From contig CBIHRB010000008.1 in assembly GCA_966212355.1 (NCBI GenBank), positions 95,084 through 159,083 of the forward strand: DNA of 64,000 nucleotides. Reading direction: 5' to 3'. The notes beneath the pieces are model-generated. The model did not search any database. It was not told where the DNA came from and saw only the letters and a program-made list of their open reading frames with translations. The translations under genes and the position numbers were made by a program. This document shows, piece after piece, positions 1,148-64,000 of the stretch. The DNA comes from an uncultured Mucilaginibacter sp. (GTDB lineage: Bacteria; Bacteroidota; Bacteroidia; Sphingobacteriales; Sphingobacteriaceae). The first letter of the stretch is position 1; the number at the start of each line of letters is the position of its first letter.

Positions 1148-1177
1148 AGACTTACGAAGTTTTTACTTCGTGAGTCT
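1148..1177. repeat. REP-like hairpin AGACTTACGAAGT-TTTT-ACTTCGTGAGTCT
   Basis: 13-bp arms with one mismatch; the same 13-mer recurs at 1290-1302 and inverted at 1427-1439. Confidence 0.85.
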
Positions 1178-1289
1178 CATAAGAGGCCAAAGTCTCTATA
1201 ATATGTTTCTCCTAAATGGCGCAAGTGTAATGCGACTTAATCAATTATTTTTTTGGCGCAAGTATGAGGGGCTGCCTTAGGGCAACTGA

Positions 1290-1439
1290 AGACTTACGAA
1301 GTAATTATGTAGGAAAAGCATAGCGCAGGAGCTGCGGTCATCCCCGTTTACGGAGGGCCGAAATTTTACTTTTAAGCGATAACTTTAAGTTTCGCAATGA
1401 TTAACAATTAAAAAGCAGTTTTTGAAACTTCGTAAGTCT
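1290..1439. repeat. REPIN-like element with perfect 13-bp terminal inverted repeats
   Basis: AGACTTACGAAGT (1290-1302) and ACTTCGTAAGTCT (1427-1439) enclose about 125 bp with small internal hairpins. Confidence 0.75.
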
Positions 1440-1459
1440 GGAAAGAAATTCCCACAAAA

Positions 1460-1491
1460 AAAGCGATGAGTATTAACCCACCGCTTTCTTT
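1460..1491. terminator. Imperfect hairpin, possible bidirectional terminator between convergent ftcD and yfhO-family genes
   Basis: AAAGCGATGAG...CCCACCGCTTT (9/11 pairing) flanked by A and T tracts. Confidence 0.45.
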
Positions 1492-1506
1492 TAAATATTA
1501 AGCTGC

Positions 1507-3987: not shown

Positions 3988-4072
3988 TTAAGTTTTTTGA
4001 AATGGATATTATATTCCTCAAAAATAGAAATTACAATGAGAATAGGAATTATAAGTTTTGTTAAGGAATAAC

Positions 4073-4369
4073 TTAACAGGTTTGCGCACGGCTGCGCAGC
4101 AGGAAAAACATGGCTATCAGCACAATAATAGATATCACATAAGCAATAACCTGCACTTTGCCGTAATCTTCGCGGTATTTGCGGATGTTGAAAAAGTTGT
4201 AAACGCCCAGCCCACCCATGATCACCCAGTAAAAAGTGCTGATCTTAGTGCAATTGGCAAAAATTTGAGTGGCCACTATAAATACGATGACATTGGTAAT
4301 AATCAGCGTAATAGACTCGGGGGTATTGTTATGGTTCTGCCGCCTGTTAAATACCGGGTTATTGTCCAT
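4073..4369 (-). CDS. Hypothetical small membrane protein (about 3 TM)
   Basis: 98-aa ORF co-oriented with its neighbours; hydrophobic segments. Confidence 0.7.
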   Translation of the reverse strand: MDNNPVFNRRQNHNNTPESITLIITNVIVFIVATQIFANCTKISTFYWVIMGGLGVYNFFNIRKYREDYGKVQVIAYVISIIVLIAMFFLLRSRAQTC

Positions 4370-4379
4370 ATTTATTGAT

Positions 4380-4634
4380 TTATTTTACTTCTTCATAGTC
4401 AATAAACTCACCTTCGCTATCAGGTACGCTGCCTTTTTTTGGTTGCGGAACATGATCAATCCTGATTTTTCCATCAGGTTTTGGGCCTTCGTTATAATTA
4501 CGTTGTTGTTGCTGATATTGCTGTTGAGCTTTGTTTACAACACTTTCAAACAGAAATGGCAGCAGGTAGCGTGCCAGGCTGCGAATAATGTATAATATAC
4601 AAATAGATATGATCAGAAAACGAATAAGAATCAT
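4380..4634 (-). CDS. DUF4834-like protein
   Basis: N-terminal TM, Q-rich linker and C-terminal GEFIDYEEVK motif. Confidence 0.75.
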   Translation of the reverse strand: MILIRFLIISICILYIIRSLARYLLPFLFESVVNKAQQQYQQQQRNYNEGPKPDGKIRIDHVPQPKKGSVPDSEGEFIDYEEVK

Positions 4635-4690
4635 ACTGTTAATTTTGAGCTTACAAATATAAGGTATATAACGTTAAAAATGTTTTATTA

Positions 4691-4801
4691 TGATTTGAAG
4701 ATACCTGTAGCTTCTTTAATTTGAAAATAAGACAATTTGAAGATTTGAAAATTGCCCGATGGTTACATTTTCAAATCCTCAAATCAATAAATTTTCAAAT
4801 T
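4691..4801. repeat. TTTGAAGA/TTTGAAAA short-tandem inverted repeat (family C), empty doublet
   Basis: ATTTGAAGATTTGAAAAT (4735-4752) vs ATTTTCAAATCCTCAAAT (4767-4784), 17/18; outer arms 4718-4728 and 4791-4801. Same family at 58711 and 59774. Confidence 0.8.
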
Positions 4802-6824
4802 AAAACTTCTCCTCCATCATTTTTTCCAAAGCAAACATTTCGTCGCGCAGTTTGGCGGCCAGCAGGAAATCCATGTTTTTGGCGGCGGCGAGCATATCTT
4901 TTTTGGTGTTGTCGATTGATTTTTTCAGGTCGGCTTTGGTCATATACTGAACTATCGGATCGGCGGCAAGTGTCAGGGTATCGGTTTCTACATAAGCCTG
5001 CTGTACACCGCCCTTAAAGTCAACTACCGATGTTTGTTCCATAATTTCCTCGCGCGATTTGCCAACAGTTAATGGCGTGATGCCATGTTGTGTGTTGTAT
5101 GCAATCTGAATTTCACGGCGGCGATTGGTTTCATCTATCGTGATCTGCATCGAATCGGTTATTTTATCGGCATACATGATCACCCGGCCCCTATCATTAC
5201 GGGCAGCGCGGCCTATGGTTTGGATCAATGAGCGTTCTGATCGCAGGAACCCTTCTTTATCCGCATCTAAAATGGCAACTAACGATACTTCGGGCAGATC
5301 CAGGCCCTCGCGCAATAAGTTGATACCTATTAATACGTCAAATTCACCAAGTCGCAGGCCACGTAAAATTTCCACGCGCTGCAGTGTTTTTACTTCTGAG
5401 TGAATATAACGGCATTTAATACCCAGCCTGTCCATGTATTTGGCCAATTCTTCGGCCATGCGTTTGGTGAGGGTGGTCACCAGTACGCGGTCGCCCTTTT
5501 TAATGGTTTTATCTACTTCATCCAGCAGGTCATCTACCTGGTTTATCACCGGGCGAACGTCAATCACCGGATCAAGCAGACCTGTCGGACGGATCACCTG
5601 CTCAACCACCACGCCACCCGATTTTTCCAGTTCAAAATCGCCTGGGGTGGCGCTTACATAAACGGTTTGCGGAGCAAGGTTTTCAAACTCCTGGAAATTA
5701 AGCGGACGATTGTCTAACGCAGCCGGCAGGCGGAAGCCATAATCAACCAGCGAGATCTTGCGCGAACGGTCACCTCCATACATCGCCCTGATCTGCGGAA
5801 CGGTTACGTGACTTTCGTCAATCACCATCAGGTAATCTTCCGGGAAATAATCAAGCAAACAGAACGGCCTTGCACCGGGCTTGCGCCCGTCAAAAAAGCG
5901 GGAGTAGTTCTCGATGCCCGAACAGTAACCCAACTCGCGGATCATTTCCAGGTCGTAATTAACCCTTTCTTCCAAACGTTTGGCTTCCAGGAAACGGCCG
6001 TCATCAATAAACTGTTTTTTGCGGGTTTCCAACTCTTCCTGTATCGCCCAGATGGATTGCAGGAAACGCTCTCGGGGGGCAACATACAGGTTGGCGGGAT
6101 AAACCACCATGTGTGTCATTTTTTCGATGGTTTTACCGGTGCCGATATCAAAGGCGCTTAACTCTTCAATATCATCACCAAAAAAGGAGATGCGGTAGGC
6201 ATAATCCAGGTAAGCCGGGAAAATATCCACAGTATCACCCTTCACCCTGAATGTCCCTCGTTTAAAATCGGCAGTGGTGCGGGCGTATAAAATTTCAACC
6301 AAACGATGTAAAAAAGCATTCCTGCTGATGCGCGTACCTACGGCAAATTTGAAAACCGAATCGGCGAAGTCATCAGGGTTCCCCATACCGTAAATGCAGG
6401 ATATAGATGATACCACGATCACATCGCGCCTGCCCGACATTAAAGCCGAAGTAGTGCGTAAACGAAGTTTTTCTATCTCTTCGTTTATCTGCAGGTCTTT
6501 TTCGATGTATGTATTTGTAGTAGGAATGAAAGCCTCCGGCTGATAATAGTCATAGTAAGACACAAAGTAATTCACCGCGTTTTCGGGAAAGAACTGCTTA
6601 AACTCGCCATAAAGCTGTGCCGCTAATGTTTTGTTGTGGCTCAGGATCAGCGTAGGTTTTTGTGTTTGTGCTATAATATTGGCAACCGTAAAGGTTTTGC
6701 CCGATCCGGTAACCCCTAAAAGGGTTTGGTAGGGGTCGCCGTTGTTGATACCTTCAACCAGCTGCCGTATAGCTTCAGGCTGATCGCCGGTTGGTTTATA
6801 TTGAGATGTTAATTGAAAATCCAT
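4800..6824 (-). CDS. uvrB: Excinuclease ABC subunit B
   Basis: Walker A GVTGSGKT, YYDYYQPEAF beta-hairpin, DESH motif, C-terminal UVR domain. Confidence 0.98.
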   Translation of the reverse strand: MDFQLTSQYKPTGDQPEAIRQLVEGINNGDPYQTLLGVTGSGKTFTVANIIAQTQKPTLILSHNKTLAAQLYGEFKQFFPENAVNYFVSYYDYYQPEAFIPTTNTYIEKDLQINEEIEKLRLRTTSALMSGRRDVIVVSSISCIYGMGNPDDFADSVFKFAVGTRISRNAFLHRLVEILYARTTADFKRGTFRVKGDTVDIFPAYLDYAYRISFFGDDIEELSAFDIGTGKTIEKMTHMVVYPANLYVAPRERFLQSIWAIQEELETRKKQFIDDGRFLEAKRLEERVNYDLEMIRELGYCSGIENYSRFFDGRKPGARPFCLLDYFPEDYLMVIDESHVTVPQIRAMYGGDRSRKISLVDYGFRLPAALDNRPLNFQEFENLAPQTVYVSATPGDFELEKSGGVVVEQVIRPTGLLDPVIDVRPVINQVDDLLDEVDKTIKKGDRVLVTTLTKRMAEELAKYMDRLGIKCRYIHSEVKTLQRVEILRGLRLGEFDVLIGINLLREGLDLPEVSLVAILDADKEGFLRSERSLIQTIGRAARNDRGRVIMYADKITDSMQITIDETNRRREIQIAYNTQHGITPLTVGKSREEIMEQTSVVDFKGGVQQAYVETDTLTLAADPIVQYMTKADLKKSIDNTKKDMLAAAKNMDFLLAAKLRDEMFALEKMMEEKF

Positions 6825-6930
6825 GTTGTTATGTAAAAATACAAATAATCCAGAAACAGGGTTTGTAAATCAAAATAAGTACATGGTAATGACAACCGTA
6901 TGTCAACATTGTTGGATTTGGGGTGATAAA

Positions 6931-7410
6931 TTACCTCTCGGCCTTTAAACGCAACGCCCTATCCAAAAAACTCTGCTGCTTTATTTTCTCTTCGGCTTCA
7001 ATAATAGCCTTCATCAGGTTGTTTTGGGTATCGGCAATTTCCGCGGCGGCCGCTTTCATAATTTCCCAAACGGGTTTCATGCGCACAATAAGTTCCTGGC
7101 CTTTTGTTGTTAACATGATAAGCCGTTTCCTTTCGTCGGCCTTGTCCTTTTTTGATCGGATCAATTTCTCTTTTTCCAATTCTTTTAACAGGCTGATGGT
7201 GGAAGGGTGGGTGTAGCCAATTTCAGCGGCGATTTCCACTACGCTTAAAAGCGGCTTAAAATGTAAAGTGTAAATAACAGGGAACCATTTGGGTTCAAAA
7301 TCAATATTACTGGCTTTGTATACAAGTACACCGTCTTTGCGCAGCTGCTCGGCCAGGCGCTGGAGCCTTGTTGAAATTGCTAAAATTCCCGATTCGTCAA
7401 TAACATTCAT
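6931..7410 (-). CDS. MarR family transcriptional regulator
   Basis: wHTH with THPSTISLLKELEK and DKADERKRLIMLT. Confidence 0.9.
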   Translation of the reverse strand: MNVIDESGILAISTRLQRLAEQLRKDGVLVYKASNIDFEPKWFPVIYTLHFKPLLSVVEIAAEIGYTHPSTISLLKELEKEKLIRSKKDKADERKRLIMLTTKGQELIVRMKPVWEIMKAAAAEIADTQNNLMKAIIEAEEKIKQQSFLDRALRLKAER

Positions 7411-7420
7411 TATACCGCTG

Positions 7421-7933: not shown

Positions 7934-7936
7934 GTA

Positions 7937-7960
7937 CAAATCTACGTAGTTAACTACATA
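7937..7960 (-). promoter_or_regulatory. Bacteroidetes -7 promoter box (TAGATTTG) plus palindromic operator GTAGTTAACTAC
   Basis: CAAATCTA at 7937-7944 is TAGATTTG on the minus strand; perfect 12-bp palindrome at 7946-7957. Confidence 0.7.
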
Positions 7961-8695: not shown

Positions 8696-8698
8696 TTT

Positions 8699-8897
8699 GA
8701 TTTCGGATGTCGAATGTTCGATTTGGGATTTGTTTTGATTTCGAATTTCGGAAGTTCGATTTCGGATTTAGTAATTAAGATTTTCTAATTTTGAGTTTTC
8801 GATTTTTGAATCAAGGAATAAAACAATTTCGAAATCGAAAATCCGAAATCCGACATGAAATGATTAATTCCGAAATCGAACATCCGAAATCCGACAT
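8699..8897. repeat. Heptamer (GATTTCG / CGAAATC) tandem arrays in inverted arrangement (family D)
   Basis: Left arrays 8699-8731 and 8737-8769; right inverted arrays 8826-8856 and 8867-8897. Confidence 0.85.
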
Positions 8898-9588
8898 AAA
8901 GTATAAACACATCTTCTTTGATCTCGATCATACTATCTGGGATTTCGATAAAAATGCAGAGGAGGCCCTGCATGAGCTGTATGTTATTCACCAGCTTGGT
9001 GAAATAGGGCTGCAATCGGCCGAGCTGTTCATCGAAACGTATACCCGCAACAATCACCGCCTCTGGGCGCAGTATCATATCGGCGAGATCTCCAAAGATG
9101 AATTACGCGAGGCCCGTTTCAAATCAACCTTTACTGATCTTGGCCTTCACCCCGATCTGATGCCCGTTGATTTTGAGGATGCTTACGTAAAACTTTGCCC
9201 CACCAAAACCAACTTGTTTCCGCATGCGCACGAAACATTGCAATACCTGCAATCAAAATATACCCTGCACCTCATCTCGAACGGGTTTAAAGATTCAACG
9301 CGGATAAAAATAGCAGGAACCGATCTTGCCAAATATTTTCAGAACATTATTATCTCCGAAGATGTGGGTGTTAACAAGCCGGACAAAGCCATATTTCAAC
9401 ATGCACTTGACCTGGCCGGGGCATCAAAAGCCGAAAGCGTAATGATAGGAGACAGTATTGAAGCTGATATCCGCGGGGCGCTTAATTTTGGAATGGATGC
9501 GATTTATTTTAATCCTTTTAATGCGGAAAAACCTCAGGATGTAACAGTGCAGGTTGCTCATTTAAAAGAGTTAACTTTAATTTTATGA
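8860..9588 (+). CDS. yjjG: YjjG family noncanonical pyrimidine nucleotidase (HAD superfamily)
   Basis: DLDHT motif I, GVNKPD and MIGDSIEADI. ATG 8860 chosen; the TTG at 8791 reads through repeat sequence. Confidence 0.9.
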   Translation: MINSEIEHPKSDIKYKHIFFDLDHTIWDFDKNAEEALHELYVIHQLGEIGLQSAELFIETYTRNNHRLWAQYHIGEISKDELREARFKSTFTDLGLHPDLMPVDFEDAYVKLCPTKTNLFPHAHETLQYLQSKYTLHLISNGFKDSTRIKIAGTDLAKYFQNIIISEDVGVNKPDKAIFQHALDLAGASKAESVMIGDSIEADIRGALNFGMDAIYFNPFNAEKPQDVTVQVAHLKELTLIL

Positions 9589-9634
9589 GTATTATCTGCT
9601 ATTAATACAAACGATTATTTGTTTAAATTTGTTT

Positions 9635-9862
9635 ATGAAACAACGCACATATCGAATATTGCTTACCCCGGAAGAAGAAGGTGGATTTAGTGTTTCAGTT
9701 CCTGCATTACCAGGATGTTTTACACAGGGCGAAACGATTGAGGAAGCCATTGAAATGGCAAAGGAGGCTATTGCATTATATGTGGAAACATTAGAGGAAG
9801 AAGGTGAGCCTGTTCCTGATGATAGCCGTAGTCTTGAATACTCTTTAACATTCGCCTTGTAG
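9635..9862 (+). CDS. hicB: HicB family antitoxin (short form, no obvious C-terminal DNA-binding domain)
   Basis: GGFSVSVPALPGCFTQGETIEEAIEMAKEAI motif; TAAATTTG -7 box at 9624-9631. Confidence 0.92.
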   Translation: MKQRTYRILLTPEEEGGFSVSVPALPGCFTQGETIEEAIEMAKEAIALYVETLEEEGEPVPDDSRSLEYSLTFAL

Positions 9863-9871
9863 TTCAATCAA

Positions 9872-10072
9872 ATGAAGTCTTATACTCCTAAGGAGATTGT
9901 TGCTGTTTTATTAGCGCATGGGTTTGAGCTTGCGCGTACCAAAGGAAGCCATCAGATATTTGTAAACCATACAAATGGTAAGAAGACTGTGGTACCAATG
10001 CATTCGAAGGAATTGAAAAAAGGGACATTACATGCAATACTTAAGCAGGCAGGTATCGATCTGAAAGATTAA
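9872..10072 (+). CDS. hicA: HicA family toxin (mRNA interferase)
   Basis: GF...RTKGSHQIF, VVPMH and GTLHAILKQAG motifs. Confidence 0.93.
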   Translation: MKSYTPKEIVAVLLAHGFELARTKGSHQIFVNHTNGKKTVVPMHSKELKKGTLHAILKQAGIDLKD

Positions 10073-10082
10073 CTTTACTTTT

Positions 10083-10616
10083 ATGAGTATCGCCAAAGAA
10101 CGTAAAGCTATTGATGCAGCCCTTGATGAATACCGCAAACAACTGGATGTTATCCCCGATGAGTTGTTTGATGTTACACCGCAGGATGGCGGCTGGTCGT
10201 TTGCCGAGGTTTACAGCCATATTATGCAGGCTACGCTGGGTTCATCAATCGCGCTTGAACGTTGTACCCACGGCAATTGCGAGCCAACTAAAAAAGGCAT
10301 TAATTGGGAAGGCCGGATCTTGCTGTTGTTAGGTAAATTTCCACCGGTTAAAACAACAGTCCCCAATGCGGTAAGCGATAAAATGGCTGCCAATAAGATC
10401 AGTAAGGAAGATGCCAAAAACCTGATCATCAAATGCCGCAAACGGATTGAAACTACTATGCCACTCATTGCCGAATCATCGCCGGCTAACAGATACAAGC
10501 ACCCGCGTATGGGAATGCTTAATGCCAGGCAATGGTTTAAATTTATCCGCATCCATTTACAGCACCACTTGAAACAACTTAACAGGATCAAAAATAAATT
10601 TAATACAGCAAAGTAA
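10083..10616 (+). CDS. DinB family protein (DinB_2-like)
   Basis: GGWSFAEVYSH N-terminus and HPRMGMLNARQW...HLQHH C-terminus. Confidence 0.85.
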   Translation: MSIAKERKAIDAALDEYRKQLDVIPDELFDVTPQDGGWSFAEVYSHIMQATLGSSIALERCTHGNCEPTKKGINWEGRILLLLGKFPPVKTTVPNAVSDKMAANKISKEDAKNLIIKCRKRIETTMPLIAESSPANRYKHPRMGMLNARQWFKFIRIHLQHHLKQLNRIKNKFNTAK

Positions 10617-19654: not shown

Positions 19655-19749
19655 AGCTTTAAACTTTGTGCGTTCTGCTTTCAGCTTATATAAATATTGA
19701 TAATCAAGCTAAGCGGCTTTTAGGCTTTGTGCCTTCAGCTTTTGGCTTT
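19655..19749. repeat. GCTTT-rich short tandem repeat (family L), two copies; another at 37569-37602
   Basis: AGCTTTAAACTTTGTGCGTTCTGCTTTCAGCTTA (19655) vs AGCTTTAGGCTTTGTGCATTTCGCTTTCAGCTTT (37569), 28/34. Confidence 0.6.
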
Positions 19750-19761
19750 CATATAAAAGAT

Positions 19762-24697: not shown

Positions 24698-24916
24698 ATG
24701 ATCAGGACTGTGGTGAAGCCGAGTAATCGTAGCATATCAATTAATTTACCAGAAGAATTTGTCGGTAAACAGGTGGAGGTTATTGCGTTTACTATTGAAG
24801 AGGCCGACAACGCCATCGAAAGTATGGACAATATCACAACTCATTTTGCTACCGAAGGAGTTTTAGCTAAAACTTGGTTGACAACAGAAGAAGATGAGGC
24901 ATGGCAGGATTTGTAA
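24698..24916 (+). CDS. Putative antitoxin of the PemK/MazF pair
   Basis: Overlaps the toxin start; C-terminus LAKTWLTTEEDEAWQDL is typical of PemK partners; TATATTTG -7 box at 24687-24694. Confidence 0.75.
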   Translation: MIRTVVKPSNRSISINLPEEFVGKQVEVIAFTIEEADNAIESMDNITTHFATEGVLAKTWLTTEEDEAWQDL

Positions 24917-25230
24917 AAGGAGATATTGTAGTTATTCCGTTTCCTTTTTCTGATTTATCTGGTAGCAAGAAAAGACCTGCTTTAGTATTGGCTGACTTAC
25001 AAGGCGATGATATCATATTATGTCAGATAACGAGTCGGCAGAGTAAGGATATATATGCTATCGCTATTGATCAAACCGATTTTGCAAAAGGCTCTTTGCC
25101 TGTGGCTTCCAATGTTCGCCCTTCCCGTATTTTTACAGCTGATAAAAAAATCATCGTGCGTACCGCCGGGACATTAAAAAGCGCAAGTTTTGCAAAAATA
25201 TCGAGCGCGATTATCAAGCTTTTGGCTTAA
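24901..25230 (+). CDS. PemK/MazF family toxin (mRNA interferase)
   Basis: GDIVVIPFPFSDLSGSKKRPALV and CQITS motifs. Confidence 0.92.
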   Translation: MAGFVKGDIVVIPFPFSDLSGSKKRPALVLADLQGDDIILCQITSRQSKDIYAIAIDQTDFAKGSLPVASNVRPSRIFTADKKIIVRTAGTLKSASFAKISSAIIKLLA

Positions 25231-25266: not shown

Positions 25267-25778
25267 TCATCTCATTCTTCTAAATGTCAGGCTTATTCTT
25301 CCGTTTAGGGTATCCGATGATGGTATGGCATGTTGCCATTCTTCTTGAACTTCTTGTGTCATATATATCAAGCTACCCGACATAAGTTCATAATCCACTA
25401 ATTCCTCTTTATTCTCTATGTTTCGAAACCTCAGAGCTCGGGTTTCTCCCACAGAAACTATCGCCACTCCGGTGTTAGGTAAAGAATGTCTGTTTGATCT
25501 GAGTGATACCCCATTTTAGCCTTGCCATCTAAGTAATAATTTATAAGGCAGTTATTGGCCTCAAAATTAATAATGGGAGTCAGGTCTCGTATGATGGCTT
25601 CCAACTGGCGCGGCAACTGTTGATAAGGATAACTAATTTGTGAATAGTTATATGCCTCTCCGTAGCTGGCCGTTTTACGCGCCGCCATTCGTTCGTCCCA
25701 ATTTACATTCGCTACCAGAAAATCGAATAATTCTGTAGGAGCTTTAATGAAACCTTCGATGTAAAGTACCCCATCCAT
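25267..25778 (-). pseudogene. AlkB-like 2OG-Fe(II) dioxygenase, split by a 1-nt frameshift
   Basis: NCLINYYLDGKAKMGYHSD in one frame and IVSVG..R...WQHAIP...RISLTFR in another; break at the A-run 25481-25483. Confidence 0.85.
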
Positions 25779-27983: not shown

Positions 27984-28730
27984 ATGACCGACGATAGTTT
28001 TGCCATTAGGTTACCCCAGTTTGAAGGCCCGTTTGACCTGCTGCTGTTTTTCATTGAGCGCGATGAGCTGGATATCCACGATATCCCGATAGCAAAAATT
28101 GCCGATGATTTTTTGAATTTCCTGCACCAGATGTCGAGCCTCAATATGGAAATTGCCAGCGAATTTATTTTCGTGGCGGCAACGCTTATGCGCATCAAGG
28201 CCAAGATGCTGTTGCCGCGTTATGGCACCGAAGAAGCAGTCGATGACCCGGACACCAAAGAAAACCTGATCAGGAAACTCATCGAGTATAAAAAGTTCAA
28301 AGAGGTGTGTGAAGAGATAAGGCCGATGGAAGATGAGCGCTTTAAACAGGAAAAGCGCGGCAATATCAAACATGACCTCGAACAGGTTGAGAAAGTGGCC
28401 GTCCCCGGCGAAGAGTTATCCGAATTAACCCTTTACCGTCTTATGGTTGTTTATGAGCGGATGATCCGCAATTTCACCAGGCGCAGCGAGGAGGTGAAAC
28501 ACACGGTAGTACAGTATCCCTATACCATCGAAAAACAAAAAAAGGCAGTTGCCGATCTGCTCAAGATCAATAAAATGCTCGATTTTAAAGCAATCGCCAA
28601 AGAATCTGAAAACAAAGTTCATTTTGTATATAACTTTTTGGCAGTGCTTGAAATGTTGCAACAGGAACTGATAGATATCCAGATTGGATTGGGTTATAAT
28701 AACTTTTGGATTTCGCCAAAAGAGATATGA
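27984..28730 (+). CDS. scpA: Segregation and condensation protein A
   Basis: FEGPFDLLLFFI..DI.DIPI, ASEFI..AATLMRIKAKMLLP and FLAVLEM motifs. Confidence 0.93.
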   Translation: MTDDSFAIRLPQFEGPFDLLLFFIERDELDIHDIPIAKIADDFLNFLHQMSSLNMEIASEFIFVAATLMRIKAKMLLPRYGTEEAVDDPDTKENLIRKLIEYKKFKEVCEEIRPMEDERFKQEKRGNIKHDLEQVEKVAVPGEELSELTLYRLMVVYERMIRNFTRRSEEVKHTVVQYPYTIEKQKKAVADLLKINKMLDFKAIAKESENKVHFVYNFLAVLEMLQQELIDIQIGLGYNNFWISPKEI

Positions 28731-29096
28731 GACATTAGATTTGAGATATGAGACGGAATAAGCCAAGTGTTTTAAAAAAGAGGAGGCCATCGGTTAGTTT
28801 ATCGGAGGCTGATTTTTGGACTGATGTTCCAAAAGGAATTAAGCAGGCTATTCAAAAAGCCAAAGAACAACTTGATCGGGGTGAGGGCATTGCACATGAT
28901 AAAGTGATGGAAAAAATAAAATCCAGATTTCTCAACAGTTGAAGTTGTTTGAGATCCAAAGAATAATTATACGTTTAGATCTGATGATTTATTCGCCGTA
29001 AACACCTGGGCGGCAAATAATATTGTGTTTATTTTAAGCTACGTAAAATCTAACATTACTCTTGTCTCAAATCTCACATCTCACATCTCAAATCTA
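28722..29096. mobile_element. Unit bounded by inverted heptamer arrays (GAGAT[A/G/T]T)n (family E), carrying an orphan antitoxin
   Basis: Left arm 28722-28754 and right arm 29064-29096, both 33 bp with 7-bp period, in inverted orientation. Confidence 0.55.
28748..28942 (+). CDS. Orphan or truncated antitoxin-like protein (RelE/ParE partner type)
   Basis: DFWTDVP..IKQAIQKAKEQLDRGEGIAHDKVM resembles addiction-module antitoxin C-termini; no intact toxin follows. Confidence 0.55.
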   Translation: MRRNKPSVLKKRRPSVSLSEADFWTDVPKGIKQAIQKAKEQLDRGEGIAHDKVMEKIKSRFLNS

Positions 29097-33400: not shown

Positions 33401-33551
33401 TTTCCAGCAGTTGCCGATCATTGCCCTTACAGCCTCTATGCTCAGCAACCAAATGGGCGAGATTAATGATGCCGGAATGAATGACTACATTCTTAAACCC
33501 TTTGACCCGAGGGTGCTTTATGATAAACTAAGCAGGTATCAGCAGCAGTAG
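30423..33551 (+). CDS. Cytoplasmic hybrid histidine kinase (GAF-PAS x4-HisKA-HATPase-REC)
   Basis: GAF (FYAGAPL), repeated PAS/PAC, SHEIRTPLN, NAIKFT, GGTGLGL and receiver VLMDIHMP. Confidence 0.92.
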   Translation: MTPRQEDPSNVENKRLAALKSYNVLDTMPEKEYDAITRLASYICQVPAALISLLDAERQWFKSTYGVDVGETPRADAFCNRTIQSDALLEIADSKEDEEFKDNPIANEMGVRFYAGAPLIDPDGHRLGSLCVIDTKPRKLTAEQRDALRTLADEVMSHLLLRKQKLELEQNLKSHQEFHDLFDSSPDIHCIMDRDFNIEQINRSAKPVLGYLAAEVKGKPIWSFFPEEEQATLLSVLRKGLSRQQRHFEIEANIITPSGDVKCISWSVTFKSDKWFASGRDISYQKKVADEVALLSLVASKVTSGVVISNAADEVIWTNEAFEQITGYSQADVENRRLRDVLKGVPLDAEAVKRLDEAIRNQVSYEVDLLIDKKDGEPVWISVFNSVIRDSAGQTDKSIRVIIDITQRKKIEQELEILSFAARKSPSGILIRSNTGEVIWMNEALENIIGYTLDEMRGKMFGTMLLGEDTDISVFKAAVKAVEEKRGYEVEIKIYKKDKTPIWVFLSNTPLFNETGSVERQIAVMVDITERKKTEEQVTMLSLVASSTASGVVINNSDGKVEWVNKAFEQITGYTLLDVKDNHLGDVLKGELTDVSIIQKARELSRNKQSFEVDLLVYRKDRQPLWISVINSVIINSKGEVDKYIEVIIDITAKKKAEIELINAREEAVQLSRAKDMFISVMSHEIRTPLNAVIGMSHLLLEDDPLDGQKENLNILKFSAENLMTLINDVLDFAKIETGNVELEREGVDLTELVQSITSSMQYKAAEKNIYISKSIDEAIPKVILGDRTRLIQILLNLVGNAIKFTEKGGVTIDLRVIQQSEQDVRIRFAVIDTGIGIAANKLGTIFEQFKQAELDTTRKFGGTGLGLAISKRLIELHDSRINVDSVPGQGSTFWFTIGFKKGDYQLNRNSNNVEEGLKINVLVVDDNQINRLLINKILKKWGASADFAENGIEAIEKVETNRNYNVVLMDIHMPEMGGLEATGIIRAKTETYFQQLPIIALTASMLSNQMGEINDAGMNDYILKPFDPRVLYDKLSRYQQQ

Positions 33552-33644
33552 CCCCACCCAACCCTCCCCGGAAGGGAGGGCTTTGAAAAGAAAGATTCAG
33601 GTCAAAAAGAAAGTCTCCCCTTCCGGGGGAGATTTAGAGGGGGC
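33551..33644. repeat. GC-rich palindromic repeat (family A), intergenic copy
   Basis: CCCCACCCAACCCTCCCCGGAAGGGAGGGCT...AAGTCTCCCCTTCCGGGGGAGATTTAGAGGGGGC; near-identical at 50829-50911 and 63601-63671. Confidence 0.9.
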
Positions 33645-33647
33645 CTC

Positions 33648-37392: not shown

Positions 37393-37623
37393 AAAATAGA
37401 TTTTTAGAGTTATATCAATCAAAATAAAATGTAATGCGTTTTGTAGTAATTACGCTTGTTAAGTAAAACAGGTTGCTTAGCCGGAAAAAAGTTAACTTTG
37501 CGGTGTTTTATAGAACCTGTTGATTGTTTCATACAATCCGGTTAAACAATATCAATAATCAGGCTATCAGCTTTAGGCTTTGTGCATTTCGCTTTCAGCT
37601 TTATTTAATACCCGATACAACTG

Positions 37624-39889: not shown

Positions 39890-40032
39890 AGAGTCAGGAC
39901 TATAAGAGTCAGGAAGCAAGAAGAATGAAGATTGGTAAAAGCAATATTAAATTAGAAAGTACGCGGAAAACACACCTGTTTTCTGCGCCTTTTCTTGCGT
40001 CTTTATTCTTGCCTCTTGCCATCTTGCCTCTA
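39890..40032. repeat. Heptamer arrays (family F): AGAGTCAGGA/AGCAAGA left, TCTTGCC right; right arm is coding
   Basis: Left 39890-39923; right 39993-40032 (TCTTGCG TCTTTAT TCTTGCC TCTTGCC A TCTTGCC). Confidence 0.6.
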
Positions 40033-47430: not shown

Positions 47431-47993
47431 GTCGGGAAGTCCGCAGTCCGCAAGTCCGAAAGTTGAGATCCAGCTTTCGGACTTGTCTTTTATAATATTG
47501 TAAATTCTTCAATCGCCGCCCGGTTAATGGCTACAGTGGTACAGCGACCGCAAATAAAGTACTTTTAGCGGATTGTTAGTGTAATCCCTGTTTTTATTAT
47601 ATGTCTTATTGTCAAGGCTTTATATTGACAAATTGCGAAAAGTGTTAACCCTGTTAACCCCCATCGCCGCCGCTCGCATCATGGCGAGTGGCAACTATCA
47701 AGCGGCCTCTGGCCGCCGGGGCAAAAGCAGCTTAGCCGTTTTAACTTGCGCTCGTTTTTAACTTGCGCTCGTTTGCAACGAGTGCTTAACTTGGGTTAGC
47801 GTTTATAACGCGACTGGCGATGCAATCGCCAAACCATATTAAGCACTCGTTGCAAACGAGCGCAAGAGATGATAGTATAAGAATCTTTCGGACTTCCGGA
47901 CTTTCCGACATAAAAAAACATTTGTATTTTTATAGATATAAAGTCTTTCCGTGAAAATCTTTCGGACTTATGCGGACTTTCCGACTTCCGGAC
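47431..47993. repeat. Nested cluster of at least three REP-like families
   Basis: AAGTCCGAAAG-type arms at 47431-47484, 47885-47909 and 47959-47993; hairpins at 47669-47716; perfect 28-bp inverted repeat 47762-47789 / 47839-47866. Confidence 0.85.
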
Positions 47994-50797: not shown

Positions 50798-50801
50798 GCC
50801 A

Positions 50802-50912
50802 AGCCCCCTCTAAATCTCCCCCGGTAAGCCCCACCCAAACCCTCCCCGGAAGGGAGGGCTTTTAAGAAATCTCCATAAAGTCTCCCCTACCGGGGGAGAT
50901 TTAGAGGGGGCT
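50802..50912. repeat. GC-rich palindromic repeat (family A) with an extra inverted half
   Basis: Perfect 23-bp inverted repeat 50802-50824 / 50890-50912; full element starts at 50829 after TAAG. Confidence 0.9.
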
Positions 50913-50953
50913 AAAGACGCTGGTATTTAAATGCTTAGCGTCTTTATTTTTTT
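50912..50953 (+). terminator. Rho-independent terminator after maeB
   Basis: TAAAGACGCT...AGCGTCTTTA followed by a T tract. Confidence 0.75.
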
Positions 50954-51672: not shown

Positions 51673-51696
51673 TTACGGATAAATATCTACTAACTT

Positions 51697-58707: not shown

Positions 58708-59134
58708 GGCTGATTTGAAGATGGGTTAATTTGAAGATTTAAAAATGAAATAATAATCTGAATTTCGGGTGGGTAACGTTCTATCAGGGTCTGTAGCAAA
58801 TTCAAATTAACCTGCAAAATTGTTTGTTGGTTAATCAGCAAGGCGTTGTTTTACCCCTCTGGGGCAAGGGACATATCTATTATTTCGAGGGCTACAAACC
58901 TTTTGCACCTCTGGTGCATCATTTTCAAATCCTCCTTCCCCTCAGGGGCTCTCGGGAGAGGACCCTGAGGGTGATAATTATCTTACGGTTAGCCTTAGTC
59001 GAATACTATATGAACGAAGCTTTACTCTATTCAGGAAAAATTTGAGGATAATTCATGATCCTCAAAAAGAGCTGAAGGGACGCGAACGGCGCCCGGGATT
59101 TTAAATAGCTTCAAGGAATTAGTATATTTGTTAT

Positions 59135-59341
59135 ATGGATGCATTAATTGTTTACCCTGAGAATAAGGAGCAGATGGCAGCTTTAAAAGCAGTGATGAAA
59201 GCCATGAAAATATCTTTTGAACAAAAAAGCGAAGTTTACCCGGATTACGTGGTTAAGGGAGTTAAAGAATCACTAAAACAAGCTGATGAGGGAAAATTAA
59301 CTCCATACACCGGATTTAAGAATGTTCTAAACAGAAGATGA
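59135..59341 (+). CDS. DUF2683-like putative antitoxin
   Basis: ALIVYPENKEQ.AALKAVMKAMKISFE; ATGA overlap with the toxin; TATATTTG -7 box at 59123-59130. Confidence 0.75.
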   Translation: MDALIVYPENKEQMAALKAVMKAMKISFEQKSEVYPDYVVKGVKESLKQADEGKLTPYTGFKNVLNRR

Positions 59342-59628
59342 GTTTAGAAATCCTATCTACGCAAAATGCGGACGAAACATTTATAGCAGTTTACGACTTT
59401 ATTGAAATCCGTTTCGGAAAAAAAGTTGCTGATAAATTTTTAGAAAAGACTGAAAACATCGTAGCTCTAATAGCAGAGTATCCACTTATGTATAAAGCTA
59501 CATCTATAGATGTCAATGTAAGAATTGCAATTATCAGTAAACACACTTCTCTATTTTACCGGGTTACAGAAACATCTGTTCATCTCTTATACTTTTGGGA
59601 CAATCGTCGGGATCAGTTGTTTTTATAA
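59338..59628 (+). CDS. RelE/ParE family toxin
   Basis: A.ETF..VYDFI..RFG.KVADKF, LIAEYPLMY and SLFYRV....HLLYFWDNRR pattern. Confidence 0.85.
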   Translation: MSLEILSTQNADETFIAVYDFIEIRFGKKVADKFLEKTENIVALIAEYPLMYKATSIDVNVRIAIISKHTSLFYRVTETSVHLLYFWDNRRDQLFL

Positions 59629-59807
59629 CAAGTTCCCCAATCAATACCCCGCCGTTGTGGGTGTTCTCATCATAGGTGTTCGAAGATAAAGTTATCTCTT
59701 TTTTAAATGAACATTTTCGCCCAAATTTTATCTTCCGAACACCAACAGCGGCGGAAGAAAACTCGAGGAGCTCCATTTTCAAATCTTCAAATTAAACAAT
59801 CTTCAAA

Positions 59808-61610
59808 TCAAAACTTCCCCTGGTCCATCAACTTTTTCCGCTCCGCTTTTCTTTTCTGGCGCTCTGCTTTATTCTTTAAACGTTCTTCTTTGTTTTTGAG
59901 ATGCTCGTCAATGCGGTCTTTAGTGGCTTTTTGGCTTTCTTCATCAAGGCCGACACATGGTTTTATACCGGTAAGCAGGGTTTTCCAGATAGTTTTAAAA
60001 AATGGCGAATCTTTAGGCCGTTTATAGATCACTAATGATGAAGTGAGCTTCCCCTTATCATCAGGATTACTACGCCTGATCACGAAGAGATTGGCATATA
60101 TCGACATGATTGATTTCCTTTTGAAACGATCATTAACCGTATCGGCTTTTAGTAGCACCACCTTTAAATCGTTATATAAAAAATCAACCTTACCTTTAAA
60201 TACCTTGCTGTTGGCCTGGATATCAAAGCTGAATTTTTTTACGCTGCCCGATGTCATTTTTACCATGGCTAAAGGCATGGTAGCCGGATTTAGCCTTCCA
60301 AATTCCATTGGTCCTAATGTGCCCTTATAACTGAAGGCGGCATCTGCATCGCTTAAATTAAATTTCAATTGCACATCGAGCCGGCCGCGGTTCATAAAAT
60401 ACGTTGTCAGATCAACAAGGGTAATGTTGTTTTTGGCTATGGCCGATGGATTGTTGGTAATGTTATAAATATACCCGCTGGTATTGTTAAATGTAACGGT
60501 GCCTGTTTTTTGAGATTTTTTATTGAACTCGTTATAGATCACATCAACGTGCCGGATTTTCATGGTGTCGATCCTTAAATCAAGGTTTAATTTCCTGATC
60601 ATCATATTGGGGAACGTTTTAACCTTATCTGTTACAGGATCTGGTTTCTTACCCGGGTTGGTGAAAGCTGTTATCTTGCCGTTTGCCATGGTTAGGCTTG
60701 AAGCAGAAACTGTGCGGTATTTGTGATAATTTAAATAGTCAAAATTGTTTAGCTGAACAGAATCGGCCAGTAAGCCCAGCCGGTCCTTCTTGCTTTTATC
60801 AAAAAAAACATCCGATTTAGTTGGCTGCATAACAAGCCCTTCGATATTTAGCCGTGATGTAAGGGTTGAGAGTTTAAGATGCCTGATCTTATAAGTATGC
60901 AAACCGCTCGGTGTTTCTCCGGTGTAATTGTTCAACTCGGTGATAATATCTTTGCAATAAAGCAGGCGCGATTTATCATATTGTGTAGCCGAATCAATGA
61001 GCAGGTCGTTTGCACTTAAGTTTAGCTCTTTAAGTTTGGAAATGGCCACCTTATTTCCCGAGTAATCTTCATAGTTCAGGTTAACGTCATTAAGCAGGAT
61101 GCTGCCGATATGGATCGATTTCAGGCTTTTGGAGATCCGCTGCCAGGCGGTACGGCGATCTTTAACAACAGTATCTTTGGTATGGTTTAACTGGTAGCTT
61201 ACATTCAGGCGCGGCTCATTCAGGATGATTTGGCCAATGTTCAACTTTTTTTGAAAATAGAGGCTAAATGGATGCACGTGGTTAAGCACCAGCCGTTTTA
61301 CCTTAAGCTCAACCAGGGTATTGGGGGCCAGGCGTAAACGCTTTTTTTGATTGTAAACTGTTGTGTCGGGCTTAAGGGTTATATTGTAAATAATAATTTT
61401 GCCCTGCAGGATATGCAGCTCGGCGTCCGAAAAATCGGCTTTGTAAAGGCTGTCGCTGCTGCTTAATACCACATCCTTTACTTTGGCGGCCAAAATGGGC
61501 GACCAATACCTGTTTACTACTACAGCCAGCAGCAATATCACTATAACCGGTATCAGCACAAATTTAAAAGTTTTTTTTTGCCACTGGTGCTTTAAAAAAT
61601 TGAGTGCCAT
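59808..61610 (-). CDS. AsmA/DUF748-like membrane-anchored beta-rich protein
   Basis: N-terminal TM anchor, beta-rich repeats, charged C-terminal tail; family is inference. Confidence 0.5.
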   Translation of the reverse strand: MALNFLKHQWQKKTFKFVLIPVIVILLLAVVVNRYWSPILAAKVKDVVLSSSDSLYKADFSDAELHILQGKIIIYNITLKPDTTVYNQKKRLRLAPNTLVELKVKRLVLNHVHPFSLYFQKKLNIGQIILNEPRLNVSYQLNHTKDTVVKDRRTAWQRISKSLKSIHIGSILLNDVNLNYEDYSGNKVAISKLKELNLSANDLLIDSATQYDKSRLLYCKDIITELNNYTGETPSGLHTYKIRHLKLSTLTSRLNIEGLVMQPTKSDVFFDKSKKDRLGLLADSVQLNNFDYLNYHKYRTVSASSLTMANGKITAFTNPGKKPDPVTDKVKTFPNMMIRKLNLDLRIDTMKIRHVDVIYNEFNKKSQKTGTVTFNNTSGYIYNITNNPSAIAKNNITLVDLTTYFMNRGRLDVQLKFNLSDADAAFSYKGTLGPMEFGRLNPATMPLAMVKMTSGSVKKFSFDIQANSKVFKGKVDFLYNDLKVVLLKADTVNDRFKRKSIMSIYANLFVIRRSNPDDKGKLTSSLVIYKRPKDSPFFKTIWKTLLTGIKPCVGLDEESQKATKDRIDEHLKNKEERLKNKAERQKRKAERKKLMDQGKF

Positions 61611-61786
61611 TTACCGGTGTTACTTTTACTTGTGTTTTAATGCTTTAACAGCAAGGTAGCAACTTTTGTTATAGCGTAGCGGATGGATAAGTTATTTTTT
61701 GTTAAAACTCATACTTAATTCATCATTGTTAATGCGGGATCATATGCCGGTGTTTAACTCAAATAAAGGTTTTGTTTAACTGCAAA

Positions 61787-61812
61787 GCAACCCTCGGGAA
61801 TTTCAGGGCGTT
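61787..61812 (+). promoter_or_regulatory. Possible ECF-sigma promoter GCAACC-N16-CGTT
   Basis: AAC-containing -35 and CGT-containing -10 with a 16-nt spacer, 40 nt before the lipoprotein ATG. Confidence 0.4.
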
Positions 61813-61852
61813 ATGTTTATAAATATCCATAACTAACATCATAAGACTCCCG

Positions 61853-62710
61853 ATGAAAACAAAAATGTACTTAGCCCTGACGGGCTCAATCGCCCTAACT
61901 TTATTAGCGGCATCGTGCAAAAAAAATCACGACAACAATCCAACCACACCTAAAGCTATTACCGGCGTACAGCTTACCTCAAACGCAACTTTTGGTAGTA
62001 TCATAACAGATAATAACGGCCGTGCGTTGTACTTGTTCTCTGATGATGCCGCAAACGTTTCAACTTGTACCGGTGGATGCGCTGTAGCCTGGCCTGCCTT
62101 TTATAAAGAAAACCCATCTATAGGTACCGGCCTGGCAGCTGCCGACTTCGGCGTTATCACCAATGCTGACGGAAATAAGCAAACTACCTATAAAGGCTGG
62201 CCTTTATATTATTATGCAAAAGACGTGGCTATTACCGATGTTAACGGTGATGGCGTTGGCAAATCATGGTTTATAGCCAAGCCGGATTACACCGTTATGG
62301 TTTCCTACGCGCAACTCATAGGGCATGATGGTAACCAATACACAAGCAAAGGTATCGCCGGCACCGAAAACTCGCAATATATCACAGATGCCAACGGCCG
62401 TACTTTGTACCTGTTTACTAAGGATACGTTTAAGACAAATAAATTCAGCACCGGTGTGGCGGTGCATGACGCCAACTGGCCAATCGATGCGGTAACGGCG
62501 GTTCAGAATGTGCCTTCTATTTTAAATAAAGCCGACTTTGATGTGATAACCGTATTCGGACAAACACAACTGGTGTACAAAGGGCATCCACTTTACTATT
62601 TTGGCCAGGACAATGGTGTTAAAGGTAGTACTAAGGGTGTTAGCTTCCCTACGCCCGGTGCAGCTATCTGGCAAATCAATAATACCACCACTGTAGCTTT
62701 AACACAATAA
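61853..62710 (+). CDS. Lipoprotein with Lipoprotein_15 (COG4315-like) secreted repeats
   Basis: Lipobox LAASC; repeated GRxLYLFxxD and QxxYKGxPLYY motifs. Confidence 0.85.
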   Translation: MKTKMYLALTGSIALTLLAASCKKNHDNNPTTPKAITGVQLTSNATFGSIITDNNGRALYLFSDDAANVSTCTGGCAVAWPAFYKENPSIGTGLAAADFGVITNADGNKQTTYKGWPLYYYAKDVAITDVNGDGVGKSWFIAKPDYTVMVSYAQLIGHDGNQYTSKGIAGTENSQYITDANGRTLYLFTKDTFKTNKFSTGVAVHDANWPIDAVTAVQNVPSILNKADFDVITVFGQTQLVYKGHPLYYFGQDNGVKGSTKGVSFPTPGAAIWQINNTTTVALTQ

Positions 62711-62733
62711 ATAACGACTTATTTGAATAGGAT

Positions 62734-62768
62734 AAACGGGTAATGCGAAAGTGTTACCCGTTTTTTTT
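62734..62768 (+). terminator. Rho-independent terminator
   Basis: AAACGGGTAATGC-GAAA-GTGTTACCCGTTT followed by a T tract. Confidence 0.85.
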
Positions 62769-62856
62769 GAAATGAATGAGATTTTATTTAATACTGACAA
62801 TATGTCATTTAGGTATTTAAATTTTGTTTATTTTTGCAAACTAATTTTTTATATAA

Positions 62857-64000
62857 ATGATGGATTTGCTTATTCCGGATAAAACACATGATGAGAGCAG
62901 GCAGGGTGAGGCGTTAATGTTAAAAGCCGAAACAGCTAAAAATAATGGCCGCAAGCTTTATATTGAAAGCTACGGCTGTGCCATGAATTTTTCTGACAGT
63001 GAGATAGTTGCATCGATATTGGCCGAAAGTGGTTTTGAAACTACTGCCGACTATAGCGTAGCCGATGTTATTTTCATCAATACCTGTTCTATCCGCGAAA
63101 ATGCCGAACAGCGCGTACGCAACCGTTTAAAAGAGTTTACCGTTGCCAAGGTAAAAAATCCAGGCCTGGTAGTAGGCGTATTGGGCTGTATGGCCGAACG
63201 CCTCAAATCAAAATTCCTGGAAGAAGAAAAATTAGTTGACGTTGTGGTTGGCCCGGACGCGTACCGCGATTTGCCGAACCTCATTAACCAGGTAGATGAT
63301 GGTCAAAAGGCAGTTAACGTGCTGCTCTCCCGTGAGGAAACTTATGCCGATATCAGCCCGGTGCGTTTAAACAGCAATGGTATCAATGCATTTGTATCCA
63401 TTATGCGCGGGTGCGACAACATGTGCTCGTTTTGCGTGGTACCCTTTACCCGTGGCCGCGAACGCAGCCGCGATCCTTTATCGATAGTTGCCGAATGCCG
63501 CGACCTGTTTGACAAAGGTTATCGTGAGGTTACTTTGTTAGGGCAGAATGTAGATTCATATAAGTGGCGTCCCACCCAAACTCTCCCCGGAAGGGATAAG
63601 CCCCACCCAAACCCTCCCCAGGAGGGAGGGCTTTTAGAAGTCTCCCCTGCCGGGGGAGATTTAGAGGGGGCTGGTGAGGCTGTTAACTTCGCTAACCTGT
63701 TAGAAATGGTTGCACTGATCGATCCTGATCTGCGGGTTAGGTTTTCAACCTCACATCCAAAGGATATCACCGATGAGGTGCTGCATGCCATCAATAAATA
63801 CGATAACATCTGTAATTATATCCACCTGCCGGTACAATCGGGCAACAGCCGTATTCTTGACCTGATGAACCGCACTTATGACCGTGAATGGTATATCAAC
63901 AGGATCGACGCTATCCGTCGTATCATTCCGGATTGTGCAATTTCAACCGATGTGATCACCGGTTTTTGCAGCGAAACAGATGAGGAGCACAAGGATACTG
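62857..64000 (+). CDS. miaB: tRNA-2-methylthio-N6-dimethylallyladenosine synthase MiaB, 3' end outside window (absent from ORF track)
   Basis: Hand translation: [63 protein letters not shown]; no stop codon seen. Confidence 0.96.
63571..63672 (+). repeat. Family A repeat inserted in frame within miaB
   Basis: 102 bp; encodes [34 protein letters not shown]. Confidence 0.9.

Follow-up and report, generated by a model that had tools for sequence, protein, structure and literature searches.

The junctions between housekeeping genes in a stretch of Mucilaginibacter DNA are filled with short inverted repeats and toxin-antitoxin (TA) modules, and the question raised by this locus is whether these belong to one mobile system or to several. 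The stretch, referred to here as the window, comprises 64,000 nucleotides at positions 95084-159083 of contig C8 in the draft genome G000 (6.23 Mb, 42.9% G+C). A sequence-only reading of the window had proposed a distributed system in which the repeats are mobilised in trans and move TA genes as cargo. Our analysis makes it probable that three independent classes of DNA share the housekeeping junctions: repetitive extragenic palindromes (REPs), arm hairpins resembling the intervening sequences (IVS) of 23S rRNA, and TA inserts. The novelty lies with the hairpins of the IVS kind, whose arms are tandem heptamers or octamers; the REPs and the TA insertions are ordinary.

Inverted repeats of the window

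The gene content of the window is that of an ordinary housekeeping region (FTCD, uvrB, upp, glyA, sprA, miaB and others), and its gene order is shared with the sister species G306 (92-96% identity), with G018 (approximately 75%) and with G004 (approximately 70%). Repeats were located by Tandem Repeats Finder (TRF) and an inverted-repeat scan, which recovered all of the arrays named in the sequence-only reading. Copy numbers were determined by genome-wide BLAST at a minimum identity of 75-78%, and domains of the TA, Y1 and PF05635 genes described below were assigned with Pfam. About twelve short inverted-repeat families are present in the window. All are dispersed in multiple copies over the genome with the exception of TCTTGCC, which is single-copy. 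Most families have 17-87 BLAST copies (GATTTCG 56-87, GAGATAT 17-31, GCTTT-type 31-36, the C-rich element 49-69, CTTGCGCTCGTT 40 and GCTACAAACC 23), and TTTGAAGA has 3-5. Word counts of the window repeats exceed expectation 20-fold to more than 1000-fold genome-wide; GATTTCGGATTT, for example, occurs 86 times vs. 1.2 expected, and CCCCTCTAAATCTCCCCC 56 times vs. 0 expected. The window hairpins that were tested had folding z-scores of -5 to -10. Scans of the window with Rfam and for tRNAs gave no matches. No PF01797 or PF05635 gene was found there among the subset of open reading frames (ORFs) scanned, the remainder being syntenic housekeeping genes, in agreement with the earlier observation that the window encodes no mobilising enzyme.

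Polarity and placement of the arm hairpins

The heptamer and octamer arms of the window are located as follows.

4715-4804: TTTGAAGA octamer-arm hairpin, G-rich arm first, directly after the uvrB stop codon; folding z-scores -6.8/-7.1
8697-8900: double hairpin with GATTTCG heptamer arms (two of G-type followed by two of C-type) that fills the junction of upp and HAD
19673-19751: GCTTT-type tandem arm
28722-28754 (G-type) and 29064-29096 (C-type): GAGATAT heptamer arms, enclosing a 64-aa antitoxin remnant (28748-28942)
37569-37606: GCTTT-type arm within a segment of approximately 100 bp that is missing from G306
39890-39923 and 39993-40032, + strand: G-type arm after dut and C-type TCTTGCC arm; hairpin z-score -5.1
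47431-47464, 47885-47909 and 47959-47993: AAGTCCG octamer arms, enclosing two REP families
58711-58747 (G-type) and 59774-59812 (C-type): TTTGAAGA arms, enclosing DUF2683 (59135-59341), parE (59338-59628) and a REP (58854-58918)

When applied to the whole genome, TRF identified 147 arrays of period 7 and 86 of period 8, mostly intergenic, and scored many more at period 14-16. The arrays amount to several hundred arms with about 96 unit types, falling into dozens of families. Their length peaks at 32-34 nt, corresponding to about 4.5 degenerate units. An inverted partner is present for about 60% of the arrays, usually at a distance of 10-120 nt. Arms are 31-38 nt long and 73-100% complementary to their partners, with folding z-scores of -5 to -7. 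The GATTTCG arm is a sharply bounded 35-mer, conserved at its ends and variable at its center. Long-range arm pairs are rare, and only about 5-8 of roughly 160 hairpins contain any gene.

The polarity of the arms is absolute, the G-rich arm being 5' in 157 of 157 pairs. Among the strand-skewed arms of the genome, the partner of a G-rich arm lay to its right 75 times and never to its left, and that of a C-rich arm lay to its left 82 times and never to its right; for non-periodic hairpins, examined as a comparison, the ratio was just 203:141. A search with eleven query families (the arm families plus one REP-like palindrome) yielded 86 G-to-C pairs vs. 1 C-to-G pair. Solo arms point to the nearest gene by the same rule (97:26), at a median distance of 8 nt. 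Arms at stop codons begin within 0-5 nt of the stop or overlap it, arms before start codons end 0-20 nt upstream, and hairpin density is halved in divergent spacers, which contain only promoters. The C-type arm contains no G and hence no start codons, which would allow it to be tolerated beside starts; such a G-poor arm may even be favored there as a leader free of start codons.

Three functional explanations of the hairpins fared poorly. A canonical intrinsic terminator was rejected based on the A-rich, rather than U-rich, sequence that follows the 3' arm. An array of stop codons in three frames was rejected as a general explanation, the commonest arm (GATTTCG) having one stop triplet. Translational coupling across the stem is disfavored, as hairpins are also found between convergent and divergent genes. 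We additionally noted two housekeeping genes that lie between a G-type and a C-type arm, rpoA (C40:18316-19622) between GAGATAT arms and tsaD (C26:15497-16748) between AATTAGTG arms. The hairpin downstream of uvrB (4710-4810) is 6 kcal/mol more stable on the uvrB sense strand, which hints at G.U pairs there.

Hairpin arms and PF05635 cassettes

Genes were sought between distant arm pairs, and those found encode four-helix-bundle proteins of Pfam family PF05635, the 23S rRNA-intervening-sequence protein. G000 has five PF05635 genes, and arms closely flank every one of them, with a different family in each case (AGTCCGAAAG, GTTCATGG, GGTGAGTGGTTGATT, GTCATTT and AATTAGTG). Of each family, the same genome contains another 9-60 arms without a gene. 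A full-length cassette is about 430-520 bp and consists of the G-rich arm, the PF05635 gene and the C-rich arm. The arm frame is not confined to G000, being present around 20 of the 28 PF05635 loci sampled in the genus and other families of the class and around 14 of the 24 sampled across the phylum (Bacteroidota). All of the cassette and hairpin copies studied sit between protein-coding genes or at their ends, and none in helix 25 or 45 of the 23S rRNA.

The arms connect these cassettes to the window. The AAGTCCG family has a cognate PF05635 gene at C47:18910. GATTTCG arms, which outnumber those of any other family in G000, enclose a PF05635 gene in G010, GAGATTT arms bracket PF05635 genes in G001, G008, G009 and G010, and the GCTTT-type arm resembles that of the gene-bearing cassette L220. 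For TTTGAAGA and TCTTGCC no gene-bearing PF05635 partner was present among the cassettes examined. No window copy holds PF05635, so all of the window copies are gene-less. Since their arms are held in common with PF05635 cassettes, the window hairpins are best read as gene-less relatives of IVS-like cassettes.

Two findings indicate that gene and arms belong together. Arm family and protein identity co-vary (Mantel r 0.52, p 0.0002): identity is 80% between proteins that share their arms vs. 35% for the rest. Furthermore, units with AGTCCG arms and units with GTTCATGG arms align between species over 360-550 nt within flanks that are non-alignable, indicating that gene and arms moved together. 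These data suggest that the arm hairpins are probably gene-less members of a large, diversified cassette family resembling the 23S rRNA IVS, in which each arm family would have its own PF05635 variant and the unit would move whole. Gene-less arm pairs, tens per family, would be left as bookends beside stop and start codons, and the DNA between them would turn over fast and at times capture small genes. The gene-less hairpins would be descendants of the gene-bearing cassettes or be reliant on them; the PF05635 protein may bind the arms, and any mode of cassette movement is inferred.

The PF05635 protein of X. campestris has been reported as a homopentamer (PMC4990558), and the PDB relatives 2GSC and 2RLD each have five chains deposited. 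The cassette protein might read about five tandem units, one per protomer. ORF-bearing rRNA IVS are 428-444 nt long, have a 28-bp stem and an S23p ORF, and are excised by RNase III (PMC4990558); the stem of a cassette transcript may be an RNase III substrate in the same manner. In its broadest form, which we advance tentatively as a possibility, the proposal is that PF05635 proteins are sequence-specific readers of 7-8-nt arrays. Gene and repeats would then form a self-propagating system, similar to that of REP-associated tyrosine transposases (RAYTs) and REP doublets (REPINs) but with no known nuclease. Such a system would have dozens of specificities in Mucilaginibacter, its gene-less copies would make up most of the heptamer DNA at junctions, and the 23S IVS would be just one landing site.

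Several observations weigh against the reading of the arm hairpins as gene-less cassettes. The most abundant families of G000 (GATTTCG, GAGATTT and GCTTT) are without a resident PF05635 gene. The co-variation of protein and arms is partly vertical, as the GAGATTT-armed loci are orthologous. Loops of different GATTTCG copies are unrelated to each other and to the PF05635 gene, so that only the shared arms point to descent from full-length cassettes. No target duplication was seen at arm borders, and no clean empty site for an arm hairpin was seen among the relatives compared; where G000 has PF05635 cassettes, the corresponding sites in G306, G235 and G055 contain a GTCATTGCGAGG...CCTCGCAATGAC palindrome rather than an empty junction. 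In a test for the transcribed strand, 60 G.U vs. 49 A.C mismatches were counted, which is not significant, and an arm's own partner was its best match in 24% of cases vs. 13% expected, a weak excess. With the two arms of a hairpin just slightly more alike than random members of their family, and with the non-significant wobble, pairing is not clearly under selection. Finally, we know of no catalytic activity of PF05635.

Exchange of hairpins at gene junctions

Comparison with relatives indicated that junctions tend to stay occupied while their content changes. At the upp/HAD junction, the GATTTCG arms are kept in 4 species around a hypervariable loop, which has indels even between strains of the species (metagenome contigs). 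Downstream of uvrB, G000 has TTTGAAGA arms, G004 and G014 have TGTGCAGA arms, and G018 has a solo arm of the TGTGCAGA family. At scpA/glyA, where G000 has GAGATAT arms, AAAGCC or CACTAAT arms without a gene are found in other species; in G018 and G004 the ORF is missing and the arms are not of the GAGATAT family. Since the families are multi-copy and the occupancy of junctions is variable, the repeats are neither private to the window nor fixed in position.

When the GATTTCG arms of G000 were compared with G306, 10 of 20 lay within continuous alignments. For the others, alignment mostly breaks at or just beyond the inner arm edge or in the hairpin region, and a few have additional genes on the loop side. 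Two of these genes lie directly inside the GATTTCG arm edge in G306 (L188:1215-1840 and L201:1220-2140), a place occupied by 29-140 nt in G000. A 187-aa ORF of unknown function is one of the two, and the second encodes a putative outer-membrane protein of 200 aa.

The GTCATTGCGAGG palindrome, of which G000 itself has about 90 arms, was found at the following sites in relatives.

G306: C15:171440-171760
G235: C1:2793310-2793630 and 6044980-6045340
G055: C74:21900-22270

Replacement between palindrome and cassette reaches exactly as far as the coding sequences, and at one site it alters the first codons of the neighbor. Same-species metagenome contigs, at low coverage, contained loop indels and no clean empty site. 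In a sparse metatranscriptome set, one contig whose flanks are 97% identical carries, after scpA, arms of another family. A metatranscriptome joint suggesting that a 37-nt loop replaces the antitoxin ORF was not used, its 21-nt anchor being located in a repeat. These comparisons portray housekeeping junctions as exchangeable slots, whose hairpins, REPs and TA genes are swapped with boundaries lying exactly at the stop and start codons.

REP palindromes and Y1 genes

The window contains the following short palindromes, REPs and REP-like hairpins in addition to the REP at 58854-58918.

1147-1177, 1287-1304 and 1425-1440 (span 1147-1440): three short palindromes of CAGACTTACGAAG type; core 13-mer 50-66 times in the genome
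36786-36835: AATCGAATTACACGAAT palindrome, REP-like; core 13-mer in 28 copies
47642-47718: REP family containing GCGGCCTCTGGCCGC (GCGGCC family)
47743-47866: REPIN-like doublet CTTGCGCTCGTTTGCAACGAG...; 50-nt arms, z-score -10.3, 40 copies

A profile search for PF01797 (Y1_Tnp) gave 7 matches in G000, all outside the window. Four of the seven genes are flanked by REP families of the window: C27:7344 by the CTTGCGCTCGTTTGCAACGAG repeat (window 47743-47866), C21:54187 by GCGGCC-family repeats (window 47642-47718), and C15:121141 and C52:16834 by GCTACAAACCTTTTGCACC (window REP 58854-58918). The Y1 flanks carry the window families CTTGCGCTCGTT, GCGGCC and GCTACAAACC, so for these families the suggested pairing with RAYTs by flanking sequence was successful. 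Window REP families have copy numbers of 40, 23 and 9, with 78-88% of the copies being intergenic. The parE unit contains its REP in G000 but not in G306, which fits recent movement. Y1 genes flanked by dispersed window REPs represent the classical RAYT/REP arrangement, an ordinary known system in which short intergenic palindromes, often inverted doublets, surround their cognate Y1 gene. Y1 (RAYT/IS200-like) transposases, whose genes lie elsewhere in the genome, would mobilise these REP/REPIN palindromes in trans.

The arm hairpins are analogous to REP/RAYT in having a single gene copy with its repeats along with many gene-less copies. They differ in that no heptamer or octamer arm family adjoins a Y1 gene (nor does the C-rich element), and in that an arm is not itself palindromic; because a single arm is not self-complementary, the arms do not qualify as REPs. 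Unlike a RAYT, the PF05635 protein of the arm cassettes has, to our knowledge, no nuclease or transposase fold. For the CAGACTTACGAAG palindrome, no RAYT was adjacent among the copies checked.

Toxin-antitoxin modules

The TA genes that lie outside of hairpin arms, and the gene fragments beside them, are the following.

9571-10090, + strand: hicBA insertion with hicB (9635-9862) and hicA (9872-10072), both with Pfam matches; 22-bp direct duplication at 9571-9592 and 10069-10090
24698-24916 and 24901-25230, + strand: mazE-like gene and mazF/pemK; Pfam match for mazF
25267-25778, minus strand: split alkB fragments adjoining mazEF

Where four TA modules had been read at housekeeping junctions, we find three complete pairs (hicBA, mazEF and DUF2683/parE), the fourth being an antitoxin remnant only. 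Pfam matches were HicA PF07927 with HicB PF15919, PemK PF02452, and ParE PF05016 with DUF2683 PF10884. No Pfam match was obtained for the mazE-like gene (72 aa), which overlaps mazF by 16 nt, or for the 64-aa remnant, which has no toxin partner. Boundary repeats are present at three of the four, as had been described: hicBA has the 22-bp direct duplication, and both the remnant and parE are surrounded by inverted arms.

The hicBA module is a 476-bp insertion, with the duplication covering the junction of the yjjG stop and the dinB start. The site is empty in G306, which has a single copy of the 22-mer, and the insert is also missing from G018 and G014. The mazEF pair and the split alkB form a 1.2-kb block, with no boundary repeats, that is missing from G306, G018 and G004. 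The two adjacent ORFs at 25267-25778 each match half of a 2OG-Fe(II) oxygenase (AlkB-like) and constitute a split pseudogene. The remnant and its GAGATAT arms at scpA/glyA are also found in G226, G230, G258, G246, G301 and G305 (at least seven species including G000), the ORF being pseudogenised in two of the six relatives; full-length homologues of the remnant are paired with a RelE/ParE-like gene and have no arms. Within this unit, a non-coding stretch at 28942-29058 (…GGCGGCAAATAATATTGTG…) is conserved in G226, G246 and G305 and is possibly a promoter or leader of glyA. The parE unit with TTTGAAGA arms was confined to the orthologous locus, where it is found in G000, in G306 and in part in G235, and is absent in G018; no TTTGAAGA arms surround 11 other parE homologues.

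The armed TA units are thus orthologous and their homologues elsewhere armless, indicating that the arms do not carry TA genes around; with hicBA and mazEF lacking arms altogether, the proposed mobilisation of TA cargo by the repeats does not hold. Two TA modules simply lie in hairpin loops, and the TA insertions are lineage-specific and ordinary. The modules would have been inserted independently, hicBA with its 22-bp duplication, mazEF without repeats, and two in hairpin loops. In belonging to known Pfam families (HicAB, MazEF, ParDE/RelE-like) and in their patchy distribution between species they resemble other type II TA modules, from which the window differs in its mazE-like gene and remnant without a Pfam match and in the lack of a toxin for the remnant.

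Alternative explanations

The suggestion that all of the repeat families and TA modules form one distributed system, with repeats mobilised in trans and TA genes as cargo, draws on the two TA units located between inverted arms, on the multiple copies of the repeats and on the location of trans-acting genes outside the window. The trans-acting part of this suggestion has been borne out, as Y1 and PF05635 genes elsewhere carry window families. The unity has not, as structure, polarity and associated gene vary among the families. Considering also the vertical inheritance of the armed TA units and the small number of hairpins that contain any gene, we judge a single system to be highly improbable. 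A more serious alternative, although one that we still consider unlikely, is that the hairpins are host regulatory or structural elements (insulators, processing sites or G-free leaders) under selection, and that PF05635 genes merely survive best in their loops. This would account for the close apposition of arms to stops (0-5 nt) and starts (5-20 nt), for the G-free and so start-codon-free C-type arm beside starts, for the halved density in divergent spacers, for the greater stability of the uvrB hairpin on the sense strand, and for the retention of arms at the same junction across species with 70-80% coding identity. Random gene capture would not, however, cause the protein clade to track the arm family, nor would it cause gene and arms to recur together at non-homologous sites. 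Neither compensatory change nor wobble bias was seen, the A-rich sequence after the arm is not the U-run of a canonical terminator, and family copy number ranges from 0 to 51 per species.

It is also conceivable that the arms are scars of break repair, in which a short template was copied onto both 3' ends in a telomerase-like or target-primed reaction. Such a process would automatically place the G-rich arm first on either strand and leave a variable filler between the arms, consistent with the absolute polarity observed, the short-period tandem repeats and the unrelated loops between identical arms. In diversity-generating retroelements, a relative of PF05635, Avd, acts as the partner of a reverse transcriptase (PMC10053308), which likewise counts toward this explanation. 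No reverse transcriptase or template is linked to the arms here, however, and the arms have a fixed length and imperfect pattern rather than variable numbers of perfect units. The polarity is in any case trivial for any palindromic element, because inversion preserves it. We give break repair almost no credence, and retain the interpretation of the hairpins as gene-less relatives of PF05635 cassettes for the comparisons that follow.

Comparison with known elements

The ORF-bearing 23S IVS of Coxiella burnetii and Leptospira resemble the cassettes described here in size (about 430-500 nt), in the PF05635 gene within the loop and in a terminal inverted stem of approximately 28-38 bp. Differences are that the cassettes lie between protein-coding genes rather than in rRNA helices 25/45, that their arms are made up of tandem 7-8-mers, about 4.5 in each, and keep a strict G-first polarity, and that a genome has dozens of arm families with tens of gene-less copies each; RNase III excision is known from the rRNA IVS. 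The origin and mobility of rRNA IVS and the function of S23p/PF05635 are questions that date from about 1990. For these, and for the excess of heptamer repeats in bacteria, this genome could serve as a comparative and experimental handle, as it has one gene and tens of gene-less copies per arm family, co-variation of protein and arms, non-homologous sites and sister species at about 94% identity.

Heptamer arrays are known from other bacteria. Inverted GGGAATC arrays of four units near ORF ends in Xanthomonas were read as G-quadruplex motifs with no gene family, and GGGGA(C/T)T arrays occur in Nostoc (PMC4692102). TAACTGA repeats and the short tandemly repeated repetitive (STRR) sequences are direct arrays (PMC4679880). 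Similar to the arms of Mucilaginibacter, the Xanthomonas and Nostoc arrays are intergenic heptamers, mostly of four units, near one ORF and variable between related species, with those of Xanthomonas often forming convergent pairs on opposite strands. The reports on Xanthomonas, Nostoc, STRR and TAACTGA repeats describe just one or a few motifs with G-runs in each genome, interpreted as sites for G-quadruplexes or regulators, and attach no gene family to them. Compared with the Xanthomonas and Nostoc arrays, most units here have no G-runs, the unit types number more than 60, and the arrays are tied to PF05635 genes. The parallel to cyanobacterial STRRs drawn in the sequence-only reading is a loose analogy only: STRRs are long near-perfect heptamer arrays of heterocystous cyanobacteria, whereas those of Mucilaginibacter have approximately 4.5 imperfect units, mostly in inverted pairs. 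Bacterial MITEs (miniature transposable elements with inverted repeats) share with the arm hairpins a small size, non-autonomy, inverted ends, an intergenic location and kinship to a longer gene-bearing form. They differ from the arm hairpins, in which interiors are not conserved, no target-site duplication was found and no DDE transposase is linked. In a literature search we found nothing on such elements in Mucilaginibacter and nothing tying PF05635 to dispersed gene-less heptamer hairpins.

C-rich palindrome and repeat-derived coding sequence

The remaining element of the window is a C-rich nested palindrome present at three positions.

33549-33645: C-rich nested palindrome (CCCACCC...GGGAGATTTAGAGGGGG), C-rich arm first
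50800-50913: C-rich nested palindrome with perfect 25-nt outer arms; z-score -8.4
63583-63674, + strand: C-rich palindrome in frame within miaB

Its polarity is opposite to that of the heptamer hairpins, and its interior is conserved between copies, making it more MITE-like. None of the copies examined has a Y1 or PF05635 gene next to it. At the junction at 33549-33645, other hairpins replace the element in G306 and G018, and at 50800-50913 there is an ATCAGGT heptamer hairpin in G018 and nothing in G004.

The earlier claim that repeats donate coding sequence and stops was confirmed, and starts are donated as well, as seen from stops located inside arms and from three further cases. The C-type TCTTGCC arm at 39993-40032 is in frame downstream of dut, encodes the core of a signal peptide, and is missing from G018 and G004. 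Beside the GTTCATGG-armed cassette at C2 about 183100 (L227:1395-1415), the start and first codons of a gene lie inside the arm, and the protein begins with MNNT in G000 and with MSNP in G306. In miaB (63571-63674), a 102-bp copy of the C-rich element is in frame and the ORF remains open. At the position of this insert, after GQNVDSYKW, G018 and G004 hold different, partly similar inserts, indicating that the site has been occupied since before the species split.

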